DNA of 64,000 nucleotides from positions 192,001 to 256,000 of the forward strand of contig JBBFKW010000002.1 in assembly GCA_037481835.1 (NCBI GenBank), written 5' to 3'. A model generated the notes under the pieces. That model was not told the DNA's origin. It saw only the letters and a program-made list of their open reading frames with translations, and did no database searches. Source of the stretch: Desulfosoma sp. (GTDB taxonomy: Bacteria > Desulfobacterota > Syntrophobacteria > Syntrophobacterales > DSM-9756). A program made the position numbers and the translations under genes. Below, piece by piece: positions 41,289-52,404 of the stretch (its first letter is position 1; each line of letters starts with the position of its first letter).

Positions 41289-42151
41289 TGTGTCAATGGA
41301 AATGAGACACCTCCGGTGAAGAATTAGACTCTCAGATCATCGCTTGTCTGCTTGTTGATCCAAGCGGCGGTTGGCAAAGCCGGAGGCTGCGGGATCTTGC
41401 CTTTGAAACGGGCAGGATTGGCTTCAAAGGCAGCCTTAAGGACCAGGCGGCGTTGATCCACCACCTGAGCCGCCAATCCATAGTGGAGCCGCTCCGGCGT
41501 GACCCGTCCCATGCCTGAGTGGCGATGTTCCTGGTTGTACCAAGTGGAAAAATCCCGGCAAAAGGATCGGGCGTCTTGGATCGAACCGAAACGTCCTGGA
41601 AACTGCGGACAATGCTTGAGGGTCTTAAAATGGGCCTCCGAATAAGGATTGTCATTGCTCACATGGGGCCGGCCGTGGGTTTTGGCGACCCCGAGATCCG
41701 ACAGCACGTGGACGAGGCACTTCGAGGTCATGGGCGAGCCCCGATCCGCGTGAACAGTAAGCCGGCCTTCAACAATGCGCTGCTTTTGGCAGGTCTCCTC
41801 AATGAGCTTCTGTGCCAGTGCGGCGCTCTCGCGGTGAGCGACCATCCATCCCACAACGGAGCGGCTAAAGAGGTCCATAATGACGTACAGATAGGCAGGC
41901 ATCGGCTTCTTTCAGGATTCGCACCTTGTAAGCAGCATTAAGGACTCGTCGGGGTTTCTTTTCCATCACTTCCGGATCCGGCGGATTGAGAAGTGCCCCG
42001 ATGGGGGTAACTCCAGTCGCCCTACGAGTTCGTTCCGCCGCCCCCATCCCTGTGCCGTGGTCGTGATTTTGAGTGGATGCCATAGCATGTCTTCTCCTAC
42101 CCGCCCTACACTCATTTAACAAGGGGCAGGTGTCTCACCGTCATTGGCACA
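41289..42151 (-). mobile_element. Internally deleted IS3-family insertion sequence
   Basis: Imperfect 24-bp IRs TGTGTCAATGGAAATGAGACACCT / AGGTGTCTCACCGTCATTGGCACA; orfA start (PDPEV..YKVRILKEADAC, ATG 42083) joined directly to the rve/DDE C-terminal part (YLYVIMDLFSR, HADRGS, DNPYSEAHFKTLK, WYNQEHRHSG). Confidence 0.85.
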
Positions 42152-44751: not shown

Positions 44752-45618
44752 CTATGCCATACGGGAGGGGTTTTGGGGAAGGGTGGCTTTGACCCACGAG
44801 ACGACGGTGCGGAGCACTGCGGGGTGGTAGAGCATGGCCACATGGCTCATGGGCGGAGTCCATCGGACCTGCCAGTGCGCCGCCGTCGGAAGGAGCGCCT
44901 CTTGAGGAAGCACCATGTTGTCCACCGGGGAGGCCAAGGCAAGGCAGGAAAAAGGGGGCTCGGGGGTGAGGTTTTCCAGGCTTTCCAAGTCTTCAAAAAG
45001 GCGGCTTCGGAAACCCAAGGATTTGCCCAGGCTTCCCACGGCGAACACGGCGAGGCGGCTCCCCTGATGGGGGGTTCCCAGGGTGAGGCACCCCGAAACA
45101 GTCCCTTGGCGGGCGGTCCATGCGGCATGGCGGGCAAGGAGTCCTCCCAGGCTGTGTCCCACGAGAAAAAGAGGCCGCGACGGGGCGCTCCGGTGCAGGG
45201 CTTCAATGTGGCCGCGAAGCTTTTCGGCCAGGGGAAAGAACGCTTCTCCCCGGCTGGAATAGGTCCACGGGCGGATGTCGTGGATCCCGGCCCGTTTCAA
45301 AGCGCGCTCCAAGAAGATAAAGGCGCTCTTGTTGTGATACAGCCCGTGAACGGTGACCACAATGGGATCCCGGGTGTCGGAACGTGTAGCGGCGCCTTTC
45401 CGCTTGGGAAGCCAGCCCAGGGGAAAGGTGAAGGCGGCCGTGATCTGAGCCGCCACGGCCCAAAGAAAACCTAGAACCAGCCATGTTCTAACCCGCCCTT
45501 TGGAAAGGCTCCGAAGCTTTTCGAGGCCCGGCCCGTTTGCGGTATCGTACCAATAGAGCGTATAGGTAGCGGCGGCAAAAAGGACGAAGAAGAACAGAAG
45601 GCCGAATGCCCACCCCAT
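44752..45618 (-). CDS. Membrane-anchored alpha/beta hydrolase (lipase/esterase-like)
   Basis: N-terminal TMs, VHGLY, GHSLGG nucleophile elbow, LGTPHQGS, D and H of the triad; start overlaps the HAD stop. Confidence 0.85.
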   Translation of the reverse strand: MGWAFGLLFFFVLFAAATYTLYWYDTANGPGLEKLRSLSKGRVRTWLVLGFLWAVAAQITAAFTFPLGWLPKRKGAATRSDTRDPIVVTVHGLYHNKSAFIFLERALKRAGIHDIRPWTYSSRGEAFFPLAEKLRGHIEALHRSAPSRPLFLVGHSLGGLLARHAAWTARQGTVSGCLTLGTPHQGSRLAVFAVGSLGKSLGFRSRLFEDLESLENLTPEPPFSCLALASPVDNMVLPQEALLPTAAHWQVRWTPPMSHVAMLYHPAVLRTVVSWVKATLPQNPSRMA

Positions 45619-46313
45619 CACAAAAGCCCTCGCTTTTTCAGAAACCCGACGACGTCCGCAAGATTCGCCACACTGCCTTCGGGTGCCGGTTTCATTCCGT
45701 TGAGGATGTCGGCGAGGAGGTCGCGTTCCCTTTCCGGGCGATGGAGAATCCACAGGCCGCGCATTCCCGAAGCCCGAGCCGGCTCTATGTCCAGTTCATA
45801 GGAATCCCCCACCATCCAACACTGTCCGAAGCCCCGCATTCGAGCGGCCTGGACCGCCTTTTCGAAGAGCGCCTCGGCGGGTTTTTTCACGCCTTCGCGG
45901 TAGCTCAAAAACCGAAAATCCGCCGACGCGTCGATGTCCGGGCACCTTTTTTGAAATCCCAGGAAAAAGGGGTGCCAGATATTGGAAATGAGCCCTATGC
46001 CGTGGCCGGCTTCTTTCAGGAGCGAAACGAGCGCCGTAGCGCCGGGGATTTCACGGACACACTCCATTTGATCATCCCAGAGGCGCCGGATTTCGCGAAA
46101 GACCATGGCAGGGTCGTGGCGGGGAAGGACCGCCGAAACCGCCCGCCCGACCGTTTCCGGGTCCGCGGCGGGGAGGGTCATGAGGAGCTTTCCCACGGTC
46201 TTGGTCTCGTGTTCGTCCAGTTTCAAGGCGGCGCCGAGCAGCCGTCGGGGGGACGCCTCCGCCCCCGTAACCAGCGTATGCCCGATATCGAAGAAAAAAA
46301 CGGTCTTTTCCAT
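45618..46313 (-). CDS. HAD-superfamily hydrolase
   Basis: FFDIGHTL, LISN, KKP, MVGDSYELDI. Confidence 0.88.
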   Translation of the reverse strand: MEKTVFFFDIGHTLVTGAEASPRRLLGAALKLDEHETKTVGKLLMTLPAADPETVGRAVSAVLPRHDPAMVFREIRRLWDDQMECVREIPGATALVSLLKEAGHGIGLISNIWHPFFLGFQKRCPDIDASADFRFLSYREGVKKPAEALFEKAVQAARMRGFGQCWMVGDSYELDIEPARASGMRGLWILHRPERERDLLADILNGMKPAPEGSVANLADVVGFLKKRGLL

Positions 46314-46333
46314 GAGGGGCGGTCTCGTTGGTT

Positions 46334-47803
46334 TTATTCCTGAACGAAGGGCACGCCGTCCCGAAGGCAGCGTTCGGCCCGTTCCAATTGCCGGCCCAGG
46401 TACAGGGCGTGGTTGATATCCGAAAGAGCGCCGTCCCGGGCGAGTTCGTATTGAATCCGGGAGGCCTTGGCGTGCCGGTAGGTCTTGAGCGTCACGTCCC
46501 CGTAACGGTGTTCCACGATAATCGCTTCCCCATCCAGGGTAATGCGAAAGTAGCCCATGGGATCTTCGCGATAGCGGAAAGATTTTTCGGCGGCGATGAG
46601 GGCGGCGCGATCCATTTGGCCCGGATCGATGGAAACGGACTGGCTGAAGACCGTGATGGGGCCGAGAGGCAAACCCACGGCACGGGCGACACATTCCCCC
46701 ACAGCCATGAGGCCGTAAAAGTTCACAAGCCAAGCGTCCAGGGCATTATGGGTTCGAAACACGGCGGTCAGGGTCAGGGCCTTCTGAAACGTTCTAAAGA
46801 AAAGGCTCACCAGGCACGGATGGCCGGTTTCCGCCGTGAGGTCCCGCCTGGGGTCCCAGAGCACCACGTAGGCCTTGCGGTCCTGCGGGTCTTTTTTCAG
46901 CCGGTCGATGACCGCCGCAAGACCGTCCACCCCGAAATAGGCTCGGATTCGGTTTCCGTAGTTGTAGGTTTCATCGGGTTCGATGGAGCCGCTCAGGATG
47001 TCCTCCCGGTAGCGCTCCAGCCGTTCGGGTTGAAAACCGTAGCGGGAGAGCGCCTCGTTGGATACGGGTGCCGGTTTTTCCACGACGACCTTGACGTTTT
47101 GCAACTCCCGGCGCTCTCCCTTGGCGAGGGTTACGGCCACCCCGAAGCGATGGATGGTGTAAACGAGATCCTTCCATGCCTCCAGGGGATCGTCGGCGAT
47201 GACGCTCAGGGCTCGAGGGTTTGAGGGGTAGCAGGAGACGTGCACCTGGGGAAGGGGAACACTCAGGCGCCTGGCCGAAGGGGGAGGGACGGGACGATAG
47301 TTTTTGAGGAATTGAACGAGGTTGTGGGCGTCAGGATTTTCTTGTGGAGATCCGAAGAAAAGGACCTTGGGCGCCCTTTCGAAATGCTCGGGCCGCACGA
47401 GATCGTCCACTACGCGCAGGGTCCCTCGGATGCGCGCGGGGCTCGGGGTTCCGTGAGGGGTCGTTTCATAGGCGACGGGAGAACCCGGATAGGGTTCCAG
47501 GCCTTGATCGAAGAAGGCTTGCAATTCTTCCAAGGATCCGGAGCGGTTCCGGCCGTATACCACCAGGGTGTCGATCTGAGGGTTATGGAGCAGATTGCGC
47601 AACAATTCCCGGAGGCCGTTTCCGTACAAGGTGCCCACGGCGGCGATGGGGCTCGTTTCTTCATGGAGGTTCAGCCCACGGCGCCGCAGCCGTTCCAAAA
47701 TCACGTCGGGACGGGACCAGAGGGTCACAAGCCCGACGGTCCCGTACGGGTTGATGACGATGAGGTTTTGGGCGCAATGGATCGGGACGAACCGGAGCTT
47801 CAT
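46334..47803 (-). CDS. Thymidylate synthase-like fusion: MtrA-like N-terminus, archaeal-type ThyA core, DUF4346 C-terminus
   Basis: G.LYGNG...LRNLLHNPQI..LVVYG; YNYGNR, RKA..LWDP, HPCL, FRTHN..AW.N; DPMGYF...HALYLGRQLERAE. Confidence 0.75.
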   Translation of the reverse strand: MKLRFVPIHCAQNLIVINPYGTVGLVTLWSRPDVILERLRRRGLNLHEETSPIAAVGTLYGNGLRELLRNLLHNPQIDTLVVYGRNRSGSLEELQAFFDQGLEPYPGSPVAYETTPHGTPSPARIRGTLRVVDDLVRPEHFERAPKVLFFGSPQENPDAHNLVQFLKNYRPVPPPSARRLSVPLPQVHVSCYPSNPRALSVIADDPLEAWKDLVYTIHRFGVAVTLAKGERRELQNVKVVVEKPAPVSNEALSRYGFQPERLERYREDILSGSIEPDETYNYGNRIRAYFGVDGLAAVIDRLKKDPQDRKAYVVLWDPRRDLTAETGHPCLVSLFFRTFQKALTLTAVFRTHNALDAWLVNFYGLMAVGECVARAVGLPLGPITVFSQSVSIDPGQMDRAALIAAEKSFRYREDPMGYFRITLDGEAIIVEHRYGDVTLKTYRHAKASRIQYELARDGALSDINHALYLGRQLERAERCLRDGVPFVQE

Positions 47804-48399
47804 GGGCGGGGGATGAAATCGGTGGCGGGGGTTCGGCGCCGGGAGGTGATGTTTCGGATGTCCGATAGGATGTAGTCGTAGGTTTCGGGCGAAATGAGGA
47901 GCCTTTCGAAAGTTTCGATCCCGGCTTCTCGAACGGCTTCTTGCCAAAAGCGATCCCTTTCGGGAGACGCCGAATCGTAGCTTTGTTCGTAGTACACGGC
48001 TCGGATCCGTGCGGTGGCGATGAGTTTCAAGCACACGTAACAGGGAGCCAAGGTCGTGTACAGGGTCGCCCCTTCGACGGAAATGCCGTATCGGGCCGCC
48101 TGGGCGATGGCGTTGGCTTCGGCGTGGCTGGCTTTGCAAAAGTTGTATTTGTCCACGTCGGGAACGCCGAGGCTCCGCCGGTAGCAGTAGGGCCGGCCGT
48201 CGTCCATGTCAGGCTGGTCGATGCAGTGGGGGGCCCCGGGCATGGCGCCGTTATAGCCCGTGGAGAGGATATGGTTGTCCTTGACGATGACGGCGCCTGT
48301 CGGCCTGGAATTGCAGGTGGATCGGGTGCTCACGATCTTGGCGATGAGCATGAAGTATTCGTGCCAGCTGGGGCGTTGTCGGGCCATGGCGTTCGTCAC
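47800..48399 (-). CDS. dCMP deaminase (ComEB-like)
   Basis: RPSWHEYFM, RSTC, STGYNG, HAEANA, PCYVC zinc motifs; 4-nt overlaps with both neighbours. Confidence 0.9.
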   Translation of the reverse strand: MTNAMARQRPSWHEYFMLIAKIVSTRSTCNSRPTGAVIVKDNHILSTGYNGAMPGAPHCIDQPDMDDGRPYCYRRSLGVPDVDKYNFCKASHAEANAIAQAARYGISVEGATLYTTLAPCYVCLKLIATARIRAVYYEQSYDSASPERDRFWQEAVREAGIETFERLLISPETYDYILSDIRNITSRRRTPATDFIPRP

Positions 48400-49406
48400 G
48401 AACCGTTTTCGGTTTTTTCATGGTACAGGAAGCACCGCACGAACCGGTCCCGCCCGTACGGTTCCAAGGATGGCACAAAACGCCGGCACGTGTCCATGGC
48501 CTTGGGGCATCTGGGATGGAAGTGGCATCCTTCGGGCGGATGCAGGGGGCTCGGAAGGTCGCCCGTGAGGCCTTTTCGCGCCTTCTTGCGGTCCGGGTCG
48601 GGAAAGGGGGCGGCTTCCAGGAGGGCCTGCGTGTAAGGGTGCAGGGGGTCGTTGTAGAGGGTTTTCTTGTCGGCCGATTCCACGATACGGCCGAGATACA
48701 TCACGGCCACGCGGTCGCTGATGTGGCGGACCACCGAGAGATCGTGGGAGACGAACAGATAGGTCAGGCCGAACTGTTCCTGGAGGTCCATGAGCAGGTT
48801 GATGACCTGGGCCTGGATGGAAACATCCAGAGCCGAAACGGGTTCATCACAAATGATGAGTTCCGGCTGAAGGGCCAGGGCTCTCGCGATGCCGATCCGC
48901 TGTCTTTGGCCCCCACTGAATTCATGGGGATAGCGGTTGATCTGTTCGGGTCTGAGTCCGACGACTTCCATGAGGTGGCGGACCCGTTCCTGCCGTTCCG
49001 CCGGCGAACCCACCTTGTGGATGACCAGTCCTTCGCCGATGATGCGCCCGACGGTTTGGCGTGGATTCAAGCTGGCGTAGGGGTCTTGAAAAATGATTTG
49101 CATGCGGCGCCGAAGGGGACGCATTTGGGCTCGGTTCAATGCCACGATGTCCAGGCCGGAAAAGACAATGGATCCCGCCGTGGGTTTTTCCAGCTGCAGG
49201 ATGACCCGGCCCAGGGTGGATTTCCCGCAACCGCTTTCCCCGACCAAGCCGACGGTTTCTCCTCTGAGAACGGACAGGGTCACCCCGTCCACGGCCTTCA
49301 CCGTGCCCACCCGGCGGCGGAAGACGCCTCCCGTGACCGGGTAATGTTTTTTTACGTTCTTGAGGGTGACGAGCGGTTCCATGGATTTGGATTTGGCGGG
49401 TTCCAT
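48396..49406 (-). CDS. dppF: Dipeptide/oligopeptide ABC transporter ATP-binding protein
   Basis: [38 protein letters not shown]. Confidence 0.92.
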   Translation of the reverse strand: MEPAKSKSMEPLVTLKNVKKHYPVTGGVFRRRVGTVKAVDGVTLSVLRGETVGLVGESGCGKSTLGRVILQLEKPTAGSIVFSGLDIVALNRAQMRPLRRRMQIIFQDPYASLNPRQTVGRIIGEGLVIHKVGSPAERQERVRHLMEVVGLRPEQINRYPHEFSGGQRQRIGIARALALQPELIICDEPVSALDVSIQAQVINLLMDLQEQFGLTYLFVSHDLSVVRHISDRVAVMYLGRIVESADKKTLYNDPLHPYTQALLEAAPFPDPDRKKARKGLTGDLPSPLHPPEGCHFHPRCPKAMDTCRRFVPSLEPYGRDRFVRCFLYHEKTENGS

Positions 49407-49512
49407 CGGTTTGTGCCTGTTTTGGGTTTTTGTTTCGCCCTTTCGGAGCTTTGGTTAGATCAAGGGGCCCCTTGACCCGGGGCTTGGCCCCGGGCTGTTT
49501 TCCTTGGCCTTT

Positions 49513-50508
49513 TCAGGGCCCAGGGCCTTCGGCCGGGGGCGCTGCATGAAGCCAGCAGCGCACGCTGTGTCCCGGCTGGAGCGCCGTCAGCGGCGGCTCT
49601 TCTTCATGGCAGCGGGGCATGACGAAGCTACACCGGTCGTTGAACTTGCAGCCCACCGGCAAGGCGAGCAGGCTGGGCACAACGCCTGGGATGGCTTCCA
49701 GCCGGCGCTTTTCTTCGTGCACCAAGGTCGGGATGGACCGCAAGAGTCCCTGGGTGTACGGGTGCATGGGGTGATGGAACAGTTCGCGCACGGGAGCCTC
49801 TTCCACGACGCGCCCGGCGTACATGACCACCACGTGCTCGGCCGTTTCCGCCACGACCCCCAGATCGTGCGTGATCAAAAGCACGGCGGTGCCCGTGGTG
49901 CGACGCAGTTCATCCATGAGTTCCAGGATTTGGGCCTGGATGGTCACATCCAGCGCCGTTGTGGGCTCATCGGCGATGAGCAGGCGCGGGCTGCAGGCCA
50001 GGGCCATGGCGATCATGACGCGCTGGCGCATGCCGCCGCTCATCTGGTGCGGATAGTCCCGAATGCGCGTCTCCGGTGACGGGATGCCCACCATGCGAAG
50101 AAGATCCACGGCCCGGTCCAGGGCTTCCTTGCGGGAAAGTTTCTCATGCAGTTCCAAGACTTCGGCGATCTGATCCCCGACCCGAAACACGGGATTGAGA
50201 GATGTCATGGGTTCCTGGAAGATCATGGAAATCTTGTTTCCGCGAACATGGCGCATCTCACTTTCCGAGAGACCAAGAAGGTCCGTGCCGTCGAAAAGGA
50301 TGCGCCCGGAGGCGATCTTTCCCGGCGGAACGGGGATGAGCCGCATGATGGACAGAGCCGTCACGCTCTTGCCGCAGCCGGATTCCCCCACCAGGGCGAG
50401 GGTTTTCCCCGCGTCTACGGAAAAGCTCACATCGTCGACGGCTTTCACCGTGCCGCGGTCCGTGTGGAAGTACGTCGCAAGGTGTTCGACCTGGAGCAGA
50501 GGCGCCAT
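49513..50508 (-). CDS. dppD: Dipeptide/oligopeptide ABC transporter ATP-binding protein
   Basis: [29 protein letters not shown]. Confidence 0.92.
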
Positions 50509-50523
50509 GGAAAGGGTCCTTTG

Positions 50524-51399
50524 TTATTCACGAAGTCGGGGATCGAGAGCGTCGCGCAGCCCGTCTCCCAGAAGATTGAAGCCCAGAACGGAAAAGAGAA
50601 TCATCAAACCCGGGAAGGTGACGGCCCACCAGGCCCTGAGAATGAGGGCCCGACCGTTGGCGAGCATGGCGCCCCATTCCGGAGTGGGGGGCTGGGCGCC
50701 GAGGCCGAGGAAGCTCAACGCGGCGGCTTCCAAGATGGCCGACGCGAAGCCCAGGGTCGTCTGCACGATCAACGGAGCCAGGCAATTGGGAAGGATATGG
50801 ACGAAAATCAAGCGGGCGTCACTGGCTCCCAAAGCCCGTGCGGCCTGCACATAGTCCTTGGCATACTCTTCCAGGACCGATCCCCGCACCAGGCGCGCAT
50901 ACCGGGGAATACTCACCACCCCGATGGCGATCATGGCGTTTTGCAGGCTGGGTCCCAAGAACGCCACAATGACGATGGCCAACAGGATGCTTGGGAAGGC
51001 GAGCAAAAGATCCATGAAGCGCATCACCACGTGGTCGAGAAGCCCTCCGTAGAAGCCGGCCGTCGAACCCGCCAGGGTCCCGAAAAACAACGCGATGGAT
51101 ACGGACACCACGCCGACGACCATGGAGATGCGCGCCCCGTAGATGAGGCGACTGAGAAGATCGCGCCCGAAATCGTCGGTGCCCAGCACATGGGTCCAGG
51201 ACCCTCCCCTTTGCCACACCGGGGGTTTGAGTTTGGCGTAGAGGGATTGTTCCAGGGGATCGTGGGGAGCCATCAACGGGGCGAAAAGGGCCATCCCGGC
51301 AAAGAGCACGATAATCGCCAAGCCGGCGACGGCCGTCTTGTTCTTGCGGAGGCGTCGGAAGGCTTCCACCCAAGGGCTCTGAGGTTTTTCGCCGTTCAT
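50524..51399 (-). CDS. dppC: Dipeptide ABC transporter permease
   Basis: LGTDDFGRD, EAA loop AARALGAS, FNLLGDGLRDALDP. Confidence 0.92.
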   Translation of the reverse strand: MNGEKPQSPWVEAFRRLRKNKTAVAGLAIIVLFAGMALFAPLMAPHDPLEQSLYAKLKPPVWQRGGSWTHVLGTDDFGRDLLSRLIYGARISMVVGVVSVSIALFFGTLAGSTAGFYGGLLDHVVMRFMDLLLAFPSILLAIVIVAFLGPSLQNAMIAIGVVSIPRYARLVRGSVLEEYAKDYVQAARALGASDARLIFVHILPNCLAPLIVQTTLGFASAILEAAALSFLGLGAQPPTPEWGAMLANGRALILRAWWAVTFPGLMILFSVLGFNLLGDGLRDALDPRLRE

Positions 51400-52404
51400 T
51401 CACGACACCTTAATCCGCGGATTGATCCACGCGTAGAGAATATCCACGATCATATTGATGGTGACAAAGGTGGTGGCGATGAGCATGGTGCCGCCCTGCA
51501 CGGCGTTGAAATCCCGGGCGTAGACGGCGTTCAGGAGCCACAACCCGATGCCGGGCCAGGCGAAAATGGTTTCCGTGAGGATGGCTCCTCCGAGGAGGAT
51601 TCCGAACTGTAGGCCGATCACCGTGATGATGGGGATGAGGGCGTTTTTCAGGGCGTGCTTGTAGTGAACGAGTCGCGGCGGCAGGCCCTTGGCCTTGGCG
51701 GTTCGGATGTAGTCCTGGCGCAGGACTTCCAGCATGCTGGATCGGGTGATGCGGGCGATGATGGCCATGGGGATGGTGCTCAGCGTGAAGGCCGGCATGA
51801 CGATATGCCACAGAGCGTCCCGAAACCCTTGCCAGTTGGCCGTAAGCAGGCTGTCTATGAGGTGCAGCCCGGTGATGGTCTGAATGTGTACGTTGTAGCT
51901 CAGTCGTCCGGACAAGGGGAGCCAGCCCAGGTGAAGGGAGAAAATGATCATGAGGATCAAGCCCAGCCAGAAGATGGGCATGGAAACGCCCACGAGGGAA
52001 CAGAGCATGCTGGAGTAATCGAAGACCGAGTACTGGCGCGTGGCGGAAATGACTCCGGCAAACATTCCCAATGAGACGGCGAAGACCATGGCGGCGAAAG
52101 ACAGTTCCACCGTGGCCGGAAAACGTTCGGCGATTTCGGTTGTGATTTCTTCATGGGTGCGCAGGGCCCTGCCCAGATCGCCGCGCAGCAGCCGGGAGAT
52201 GAACCGGCCGTATTGAATGTGCAAAGGCTGGTCCAACCCCAGCTGCTCGCGCAGTTCCTTAAGGGCCTGTTCGGACGCCCGTTCCCCAAGCATCATCTCG
52301 GCCGGGTCTCCCGGAACCAGGTGAATCATGAGAAACACCAGGACCGAAATGCCGAAAACGGTTGGGATCAGGGTCAGAACGCGTCGAATGATAAAAGAAG
52401 CCAC
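51400..52404 (-). CDS. dppB: Dipeptide ABC transporter permease
   Basis: PGDPA, FPATVEL, DYIRTAKAKGL, ETIFAWPG; GTG start. Confidence 0.92.
   Translation of the reverse strand: MASFIIRRVLTLIPTVFGISVLVFLMIHLVPGDPAEMMLGERASEQALKELREQLGLDQPLHIQYGRFISRLLRGDLGRALRTHEEITTEIAERFPATVELSFAAMVFAVSLGMFAGVISATRQYSVFDYSSMLCSLVGVSMPIFWLGLILMIIFSLHLGWLPLSGRLSYNVHIQTITGLHLIDSLLTANWQGFRDALWHIVMPAFTLSTIPMAIIARITRSSMLEVLRQDYIRTAKAKGLPPRLVHYKHALKNALIPIITVIGLQFGILLGGAILTETIFAWPGIGLWLLNAVYARDFNAVQGGTMLIATTFVTINMIVDILYAWINPRIKVS

Follow-up and report, generated by a model that had tools for sequence, protein, structure and literature searches.

The stretch of DNA considered here, a window of 64,000 nucleotides (nt) from a Desulfosoma sp. 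(contig JBBFKW010000002.1 of assembly GCA_037481835.1, positions 192,001 to 256,000), carries four minus-strand genes arranged head to tail, which encode a dCMP deaminase, a ThyA-family protein of 489 amino acids (aa), a hydrolase of the HAD family and an alpha/beta hydrolase. The 489-aa protein (window positions 46334-47803), a candidate thymidylate synthase, is the subject of this work and is referred to below as the fusion. It consists of an N-terminal MtrA-fold domain (residues 1-178, positions 47270-47803), a short ThyA-fold core (residues 195-411, positions 46571-47221) and a C-terminal DUF4346 domain (residues 413-489, positions 46337-46567). The ATG of the fusion (47803-47801) overlaps the TGA of the deaminase (47802-47800) as ATGA, and its TAA stop at 46336-46334 is followed, after a gap of 20 nt, by the ATG of the HAD gene at 46313. 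An earlier note on this locus, made from the sequence alone, had given these coordinates, overlaps and gene order as well as the three domains; the former proved correct when the open reading frames (ORFs) and junctions were read again, and all three domain assignments were supported by comparisons with hidden Markov models (HMMs) and structures.

Domains and active site of the fusion

The core of the fusion has the ThyA fold. PF00303 matches residues 282-449 with 37 bits, above its cut-off of 24.3. Among the NCBIfam models, the methanogen-type ThyA model TIGR03283 scores best (residues 208-392), its 126.6 bits falling short of the equivalog cut-off of 174.55; no NF0024xx ThyA equivalog exceeds 24 bits, where about 327 would be required. 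An AlphaFold2 model was built from an alignment of 26 rows (mean predicted local distance difference test score (pLDDT) 84.7, predicted template-modelling score (pTM) 0.49), in which the single domains are predicted confidently, whereas their mutual arrangement is not. When the modelled folds were compared with 48,161 structure chains in a search independent of Foldseek, the core aligned with ThyA-fold chains at Z 17-23, and the root-mean-square deviations (rmsd) were 1.8-3.0. The best match was 9iqc_A, a flavin-dependent dCMP hydroxylase with a ThyA fold (Z 22.9); the CMP hydroxymethylase MilA reached Z 21.6, and true ThyA chains Z 17-19. Foldseek itself returned 397 matches at E<=0.001, and those listed were all chains of the thymidylate synthase (TS) family.

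Equivalents of the E. coli TS residues were located by HMM alignment to the T4 enzyme (1tis) together with conservation over 40 diverse members of the family. The predicted catalytic nucleophile, Cys330 (codon 46814-46816, minus strand), forms with Pro329 the counterpart of Pro145-Cys146; the pair is invariant (40/40) and aligns with the PC motif in the PPC of T4 TS. Tyr282 (Tyr94 of the E. coli enzyme), Arg350 (Arg166) and Asn361 (the uracil-specifying Asn177) are likewise kept and invariant, and Arg309 (Arg126) is kept and at least 90% conserved. Four further positions are changed: His147 is replaced by Leu331 and Asp169 by Asn353, and His207 and Tyr209, which act at the 3'-OH of deoxyuridine monophosphate (dUMP), are replaced by Ser391 and Asp393. 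The motifs picked out in the earlier note, HPCL (328-331), RTHN in the place of RSxD (350-353) and SVSID in the place of HxY (within SQSVSID, 387-393), were all found again, and its assignment of a catalytic Cys, an Arg and the dUMP-specifying Asn to a ThyA core agrees with both the HMM alignment and the fold. In a study of E. coli TS (PMC4304848), Asp169 and His147 are among the eight catalytic residues listed, Asp169 is described as tolerating few substitutions, and His207 and Tyr209 are listed as dimer-interface residues.

Two members of the family from Abditibacteriota (P0027 and P0030, 786 aa) contain the MtrA-like, ThyA and DUF4346 domains followed by a further ThyA-DUF4346 repeat with Ser in the place of the catalytic Cys, so that they resemble a fused pseudo-heterodimer with one active site. 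The sequences of these tandem forms suggest that the core may still pair in the manner of ThyA dimers.

The N-terminal domain is recognised by its fold. For residues 1-178 the best structural match is 5laa_B, a cobalamin-containing MtrA homologue (Z 13.6; 143 residues aligned with an rmsd of 2.4), and the next unrelated fold reaches Z 6.3. When the domain was folded alone, the model had a pLDDT of 94.5 and a pTM of 0.90, and its seven best Foldseek matches were all MtrA chains. No Pfam family, PF04208 included, matches residues 1-205 at E<=10; profile matches to the PDB were weak (E 0.002-0.09), and a search of the ESM Atlas with the domain gave a best score of 0.76, which is below the usable range. 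According to a structural study of MtrA (PMC4915002), His84 ligates cobalt with Glu54 as its partner, and the nucleotide tail is contacted by Gly57-O and Asn64-ND2. In our profile alignment the MtrA segment GSEVQGH84 pairs with G84-R-N-R-S-G-S90 of the fusion, placing Ser90 at His84 and Tyr60 at Glu54, and the meander motif of MtrA is not recognisable, in keeping with the earlier description of this terminus as MtrA-like but lacking an obvious His ligand. The aligned counterparts of Gly57 and Asn64, on the other hand, are Gly63 and Asn70, both invariant (40/40); together with Trp29 they are the only invariant residues of the domain over the 40 diverse members. Since Gly63 and Asn70 are invariant and His84 is lost, the pocket for the tail or a phosphate looks conserved, and ligation in the His-on mode does not. 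Judged by these residues, the domain could hold a His-off cobamide or some other cofactor that bears a nucleotide, or its role may be purely structural.

The C-terminal domain is matched by PF14251 over the full 86-position profile with 61.9 bits, or 66.3 bits if the domain is scanned by itself, where the cut-off is 29.6, and has Asp414 and His465 as invariant residues. The best structural matches of residues 412-489 are ribosomal proteins at Z 6.5 or less, and the domain is therefore without a solved relative. NF002128 and TIGR00284 match the fusion at residues 400-489 and 414-488, which places DUF4346 on MtrA-type and DHPS-like proteins as well; the term 'pterin-binding' for this domain is a Pfam label only. 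No paper on DUF4346 (PF14251) or on the three-domain architecture was found in open-access text.

Occurrence of the fusion and of its partner ParB-CE

A word-indexed search in which 8000 candidates were scored retrieved 755 homologues of the fusion at E<=0.001. Those listed, 120 in number, are 487-786 aa long, all contain PF14251 and nearly all PF00303, and where public names are given they read 'thymidylate synthase', 'DUF4346 domain-containing protein' or 'hypothetical protein'. An exhaustive search of 50%-identity representatives yielded 1849 matches at E<=1e-3, a number that falls to 719 at E<=1e-10 and to 192 at E<=1e-30. When a single genome was scanned for each species, 124 encoded relatives came up, of which 80 loci were analysed; the selection pattern contains RTHN, and the set is therefore biased to the RTHN-type clade. 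Most of these loci belong to Thermodesulfobacteriota (Desulfosoma, Desulfacinum, Syntrophobacterales, Desulfobaccales), and the set also includes Desulfovirgula and Desulfocucumis, both from Bacillota, as well as Thiomargarita, a Thiotrichaceae member, Magnetococcus and an Acidobacteriaceae member. The nearest named relative comes from a Desulfosoma metagenome-assembled genome (79% identity). A phage origin found no support: no full-length form occurs in 50,697 phage records, 0/244 matching records extend over 80% or more of the protein, and in the 15 phage matches listed the alignment is confined to residues 178-445.

The genome from which the window was taken (G000; 99.37% complete, 38 contigs) has no ThyX and no PF00303 match besides the fusion; a thymidylate kinase (Tmk) is present. 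Among 41 related genomes, its own included, the fusion was found in 15 (7/8 in family f1, 6/6 in f2 and 1/26 in f3) and ThyX in 24, all of which lack the fusion, so that no genome has both. Neither was found in two genomes, G004 (95% complete, 380 contigs) and G021. PF00303 matches occur in 17/41 genomes, namely the 15 with the fusion, G021 and G031. The fusion is the only gene of ThyA or ThyX type found in G006, G009, G011, G013, G014, G015, G017 and G019, and also the only such candidate in four genomes of another family that are 99-100% complete (G049, G090, G126, G159). Since these twelve near-complete genomes would otherwise be left without any thymidylate synthase, the fusion most probably makes thymidylate (dTMP), and we consider this product likely. 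The suggestion of the earlier note that a non-thymine product may arise is disfavoured both by the mutual exclusion of the fusion and ThyX and by these twelve genomes.

The earlier note had also proposed that the genome be searched for thyA, thyX and folA. The results for thyX and for PF00303-type thyA are those given above, with the fusion as the sole match, and the search for folA was less clear-cut: one reductase of 172 aa scores equally with RibD_C (57.9 bits) and DHFR_1 (57.2 bits). In addition, a second divergent ThyA-like gene, which the note had missed, lies outside the window on the plus strand of another contig (G000:C24:12329-13105; 259 aa). It is matched by TIGR03283 (12344-13030) at 51.4 bits and by PF00303 at 19 bits, below the cut-off. 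Its product is about 23% identical to the core of the fusion over short segments, has an insertion of about 38 aa and reads TQCL, RSWN and KLGLA at the three motifs. The paralog subfamily (252-265 aa, 72-86% identical across orders and 72-96% when genera are included, without a PF00303 match) sits in a larger family of stand-alone short ThyAs of 216-230 aa; the former is present in 10/41 relatives and the latter in 43/151 genomes of a phylum sample. One cluster of the paralog, P0272, has a C-terminal tail resembling a 4Fe-4S ferredoxin. As for dihydrofolate reductase (DHFR), PF00186 is missing from 8/15 fusion genomes of the order, and equally from all 24 ThyX genomes, which makes the absence of DHFR unusable as a sign of built-in recycling.

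The co-occurrence of the fusion with a further gene is new here and goes beyond what the earlier note had in view. A Pfam scan of the neighbours at distant loci brought up a protein of about 205 aa with a 'ParB CE domain' (PF24392), hereafter ParB-CE. Its gene directly follows the fusion in Desulfobaccales and directly follows the HAD gene in Thiomargarita, Magnetococcus and Acidobacteriaceae, and by tblastn it adjoins the fusion in 13/80 genome loci, Desulfovirgula included. The genome of the window has a single copy on a different contig (G000:C1:79661-80101, minus strand, 266 bits). Located 15 nt after this copy is a gene whose 320-aa product, a membrane protein, contains a nucleoside-recognition Gate domain (PF07670), and the same pairing was seen in 4/80 metagenome loci.

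ParB-CE was present in all 25 fusion genomes tested. Among the 41 relatives it occurs in 16, that is, in all 15 with the fusion and in G004, and in none of the 24 ThyX genomes. It was found in 10/151 genomes of the phylum sample, with all 8 fusion carriers among them, in 5/5 further fusion genomes where the two genes are not adjacent (Desulfocucumis, a Thiotrichaceae member and Thiomargarita among them) and in 0/14 control genomes. Within the order of Desulfocucumis, 8/41 genomes have ParB-CE, and five of the 41 (G204, G196, G201, G221, G224) were searched for the fusion: G204 has the full-length form, G196 and G201 have a short ThyA-like match only, and the ParB-CE-negative G221 and G224 have neither the fusion nor a short ThyA-like match.

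A metagenome scan anchored on ParB-CE gave 240 relatives, 80 of which were analysed for neighbours within 4 kb; many contigs are short, and the counts are lower bounds. At least 48 of these loci have a dCMP deaminase nearby, 20 the HAD gene, 12 the fusion and 6 a gene of the 259-aa paralog type. Three loci (L143, L144, L149) contain one and the same row of five genes, paralog, HAD, ParB-CE, deaminase and fusion.

The ParB-CE protein has a DGxHR signature (Asp119-Gly120-x-His122-Arg123) that is invariant in 35/35 sequences, as are Glu104, Glu108, Lys172, Lys173, Arg176, Arg185 and Arg198. There was no match among the NCBIfam models. The 120 homologues listed are all unnamed, called 'hypothetical' or named after the domain alone. 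No paper on a ParB-like catalytic effector was found in open-access text, where 'ParB-CE' yields only unrelated uses of ParB-Cerulean and ParB-centromere. The idea that ParB-CE might replace thymidylate kinase was rejected, Tmk being present. That it merely follows the dCMP deaminase is disfavoured by five ThyX genomes (G016, G018, G032, G033, G038), which hold the deaminase-HAD pair at 77-84% identity and have no ParB-CE; this distribution indicates that ParB-CE tracks the type of synthase and not the deaminase.

The active-site residues follow ParB-CE in a similar way. The clade of the fusion reads HPCL, FRTHN and SxSID, the paralog subfamily reads TQCL, FRSWN and KLGLA, and the short ThyA-like proteins of G119 and G185, two genomes with ParB-CE and without the fusion, read FRSWN and GLNIR. 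Seven ordinary short ThyAs that are positive for PF00303 read PPCL, FRSWD and GLHLY, which is the canonical pattern; their source genomes were not themselves checked for ParB-CE. In the phylum sample, 40/43 genomes with a short ThyA have no ParB-CE. The change of Asp169 to Asn and the loss of His207 and Tyr209 thus recur in every ParB-CE-linked group examined, in what is a small sample, and this recurrence is the strongest hint that ParB-CE may be tied to the cofactor half-reaction.

Operon partners and neighbouring genes

The dCMP deaminase gene (47800-48399, minus strand) starts with GTG and encodes a ComEB-like protein of 199 aa that is matched by PF00383 at 84.1 bits and by the ComEB model TIGR02571 at 106 bits, below the cut-off of that model. 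The HAD gene (45618-46313, minus strand) encodes 231 aa with PF00702, PF13242 and PF13419 all above their cut-offs, and represents a distinct subfamily. Deaminase, fusion and HAD follow one another in this order in 12/12 Syntrophobacterales loci, and the alpha/beta hydrolase comes next in 10/12. The conservation of the operon, which the earlier note had wished to see examined, is thereby established for this group, and its view that the deaminase supplies dUMP gains support from the upstream position of the deaminase in all twelve loci. Over the 80 genome loci the fusion is adjoined by the deaminase in 11, by the HAD gene in 15 and by the alpha/beta hydrolase in 9.

The HAD gene adjoins the fusion also in Bacillota, Gammaproteobacteria, Magnetococcus and Acidobacteria. 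It stands after the fusion in Thiomargarita, Magnetococcus and Acidobacteriaceae and before it in Desulfovirgula, where the row consists of serine hydroxymethyltransferase (SHMT), a deaminase-like gene, HAD, ParB-CE and the fusion; in Magnetococcus the row is fusion, HAD, ParB-CE and dCTP deaminase. An orthologous deaminase (76-94% identity) is present in all 15 fusion genomes and in the five ThyX genomes named above, where it adjoins the HAD gene. The deaminase and the HAD protein therefore appear to be a general pair on the dUMP side, between whose members the gene of the fusion sits. The deaminase matches of two relatives (G009:C13:342288-342857 and G014:C36:26617-27195) contain one in-frame TGA each, which may reflect read-through of a true stop at a shorter C-terminus.

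The general acid of HAD motif I is the residue at Asp+2. In the HAD protein of the window this motif is FFDIGHTL (D9-I-G11-H-T13), in agreement with the pattern FFDIGxTL of its subfamily, so that Asp+2 is Gly11, which is invariant (11/11), and the sequence departs from DxDx(T/V). The nucleophile Asp, the Ser of motif II, the Lys of motif III and GDxxxxD of motif IV are kept. A specific link of the HAD protein to the fusion was considered and rejected, as it occurs in 30/41 relatives, 16 of which are ThyX genomes; the form with Gly at Asp+2 is a general companion of dUMP and dTMP genes. In one relative (G029:C33:79555-81476) a HAD gene of the fusion-linked subfamily lies beside thyX on the opposite strand.

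The ORF of the lipase-like alpha/beta hydrolase (44752-45753, minus strand; PF12697 37.3 bits, PF07819 27.1 bits) overlaps the 3' end of the HAD gene, and translation probably begins at Met46 (45618), which lies one base inside the stop of the HAD gene. A membrane segment is predicted by eye at its N-terminus. In three Desulfobaccales loci (L060, L063, L079) a 222-aa Abhydrolase_11 protein is encoded 0.5-1.3 kb downstream of the fusion; the hydrolase that follows the HAD gene in the window differs from this recurrent protein.

On the other side of the operon, the GTG of the deaminase abuts or overlaps the stop of an oppF-like ATP-binding cassette (ABC) ATPase gene. Directly upstream lies an oligopeptide/dipeptide ABC transporter operon (window 48396-52404, minus strand), in which two ATPases and two permeases were recognised by eye, and its adjacency to the deaminase is kept in the Desulfosoma and Desulfacinum relatives. 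No promoter-like or terminator-like site was found on the minus strand between 44400 and 48800, which is weak evidence, the counts being at the level of shuffled sequence. Further away (window 41324-41902, minus strand) there is an apparently truncated integrase-core part of an IS3-family transposase, judged from its translation only.

Proposed reaction and relation to known systems

From these results, a hypothesis regarding the function of the fusion may be put forward: it would be the thymidylate synthase of its lineage, of a distinct three-domain type with a non-canonical one-carbon and reductant half-reaction, and we assign this reading a probability of about 0.5. The dCMP deaminase would supply dUMP, which would be activated by Cys330 of the short ThyA core, with Arg350 and Arg309 holding the phosphate and Asn361 reading the uracil, and C5 would then be methylated to give dTMP. 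The one-carbon and reductant half-reaction would be handled otherwise than by converting methylenetetrahydrofolate (CH2-THF) to dihydrofolate (DHF): the MtrA-fold domain may bind a nucleotide-tailed cofactor or a phosphate without a His ligand, DUF4346 may take part, and ParB-CE may act as a helper that uses nucleoside triphosphates (NTPs). The atypical one-carbon carrier or recycling envisaged in the earlier note is supported indirectly by the replacement of Asp169 with Asn and of His147 with Leu and by the strict co-occurrence with ParB-CE. Moreover, Asp169 and His207/Tyr209 are lost in all ParB-CE-linked ThyA-like proteins examined and kept in the examined short ThyAs that are independent of ParB-CE, from which we infer that the half-reaction would differ from that of CH2-THF to DHF. 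In its boldest form the hypothesis would amount to a third mode of thymidylate synthesis, independent of DHFR, in which the use of folate as a reductant has been given up, carbon, electrons or both are delivered through DUF4346 and the fused MtrA-fold domain, which could carry a His-off cobamide or a different nucleotide-tailed cofactor, ParB-CE is obligatory, and ThyX is displaced in several anaerobic and microaerophilic lineages; this extension is tentative, and we hold it to be doubtful.

Several points weigh against the preferred reading. The 259-aa paralog means that the fusion is not the sole candidate in the genome of the window, and together with the DHFR/RibD_C-like reductase it makes a folate/DHFR cycle possible; the absence of PF00186 does not discriminate, since it is missing in the ThyX genomes of the order as well. 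SHMT beside the fusion in Desulfovirgula suggests that the carbon comes from CH2-THF. ParB-CE occurs without the fusion in G004, G119, G185, G196 and G201, each of which has a short ThyA-like gene. The related genomes are not independent samples, and the exclusion between ThyX and the fusion is a pattern and not a statistic. The equivalents of His207 and Tyr209 were placed by a single HMM alignment, and the PF00303 alignment spans no part of the N-terminal third of the core, where equivalents of Glu58 and Trp80 were not located. Finally, 6/40 aligned members, the most distant of the three-domain proteins, keep the canonical RSxD and HxY. It is thus the clade of the fusion, and not the architecture, that is marked by the altered site, and the three domains need not in themselves mean altered chemistry.

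In the strongest rival explanation, the fusion is an ordinary CH2-THF-dependent ThyA that releases DHF, its extra domains replace missing elements for folate-tail binding and closure or serve in regulation or oligomerisation, and ParB-CE belongs to the metabolism of the deoxynucleotide pool, for example as a (d)CTP hydrolase feeding the deaminase. The equivalents of the catalytic Cys, Arg166, Asn177, Tyr94 and Arg126 are all kept, in keeping with this reading; the distant three-domain members with canonical motifs, the SHMT of the Desulfovirgula operon and the DHFR/RibD_C-like gene fit it equally well, the commonest neighbour of ParB-CE is the dCMP deaminase (48/80) and not the fusion (12/80), and public sources name the protein 'thymidylate synthase'. 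However, ParB-CE tracks the type of synthase and not the deaminase, being missing from the five ThyX genomes with the deaminase-HAD pair; it is also missing from 40/43 genomes with a short ThyA, 8/15 fusion genomes of the order have no PF00186 match, and the changes of Asp169 to Asn and His147 to Leu affect residues listed as catalytic in PMC4304848. On balance we regard an ordinary enzyme as possible but rather unlikely.

A special case of the non-canonical reading is a synthase that depends on a corrinoid or on another methyl transfer, in which the MtrA-fold domain would carry a His-off cobamide or a nucleotide-tailed cofactor, DUF4346 would dock a methyl-pterin donor, no DHF would be formed and ParB-CE would be an NTP-dependent activator. 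It agrees with the fold of the N-terminal domain, with the alignment of the tail contacts Gly57 and Asn64 of MtrA to invariant residues, with the NCBIfam models that put DUF4346 on MtrA-type and DHPS-like proteins and with the many hosts that, going by their names only, are anaerobes of corrinoid-rich lineages. Set against this, His84 and Glu54, as described in PMC4915002, are not kept and the meander motif is unrecognisable, PF04208 gives no match, the ParB-CE-linked short ThyA-like proteins have no MtrA-like domain at all, and the hosts include Thiomargarita, Magnetococcus and Acidobacteria, so that this case appears improbable.

The least likely reading, and to our minds a very improbable one, is that the product is 5-hydroxymethyl-dUMP or another C5-modified pyrimidine nucleotide, or that the substrate is a ribonucleotide or polynucleotide, with ParB-CE and the HAD protein processing the product: although 9iqc (Z 22.9) and MilA (Z 21.6) rank ahead of true ThyA as fold neighbours, the His207 and Tyr209 positions are changed, and the gene is linked to a ParB-like enzyme and to a HAD protein whose motif I is atypical, such a product would leave 12 near-complete genomes without a thymidylate synthase, the fusion and ThyX are strictly complementary in their distribution, the Asn that specifies uracil is invariant, the HAD family is found with ThyX too and adjoins thyX in G029, thymidylate kinase is present and no full-length form occurs in the 50,697 phage records.

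To the best of our knowledge, established thymidylate synthesis is limited to two systems, that of ThyA with DHFR and that of the flavin enzyme ThyX, each of which is a drug target. The fusion is widespread (192 clusters at 50% identity) and fills the slot of ThyX in whole lineages, spans Thermodesulfobacteriota, Bacillota, Gammaproteobacteria, Magnetococcus, Acidobacteria and Abditibacteriota, and bears two extra domains from the world of corrinoid and pterin one-carbon transfer. If its chemistry differs as the preferred reading proposes, it would represent a new solution to an essential reaction and provide first functions for DUF4346, for bacterial MtrA-like domains and for PF24392. If it is an ordinary enzyme, its recognition would correct metabolic reconstructions in which 'no thyA/thyX' is reported or the ParB-CE gene goes unexplained.

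Among the known systems, the methanogen-type ThyA (TIGR03283; PF00303) shares with the fusion the fold, the Pro-Cys nucleophile and the equivalents of Tyr94, Arg126, Arg166 and Asn177, whereas the fusion scores below the equivalog cut-off, has two extra domains, differs at Asp169, His147, His207 and Tyr209 and co-occurs with ParB-CE. The cofactor use of the methanogen enzyme is itself described as poorly known in PMC9012536. MtrA, the corrinoid subunit of methyl-tetrahydromethanopterin (H4MPT):coenzyme M (CoM) methyltransferase, and its cytoplasmic homologues (5laa, 5l8x) have the same Rossmann-like fold with an N-terminal beta0 strand as the N-terminal domain, and share with it the G..N and NPxI segment, in which the tail-binding Gly57 and Asn64 are included; the domain differs in lacking His84, Glu54, the meander motif, the membrane anchor and a PF04208 match, and in being fused to a ThyA core. 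The bifunctional DHFR-TS of protozoa and plants, in which TS is fused to an N-terminal nucleotide-binding alpha/beta domain, offers an analogy for built-in recycling, but the N-terminal domain of the fusion does not have the DHFR fold, its best match being MtrA. ThyX occupies the same phyletic slot as the fusion, the two being mutually exclusive in the order, and is unrelated in fold and chemistry; ThyX genomes have no ParB-CE (0/24). ParB-CE, for its part, may be compared with the NTP-binding proteins of the ParB/Srx fold, such as the ParB CTPase, sulfiredoxin and the SerK kinase, to which its DGxHR signature and its Pfam name 'ParB CE domain' point; unlike ParB, it has neither DNA-binding nor dimerisation domains (about 204 aa), and its family has no characterised member.

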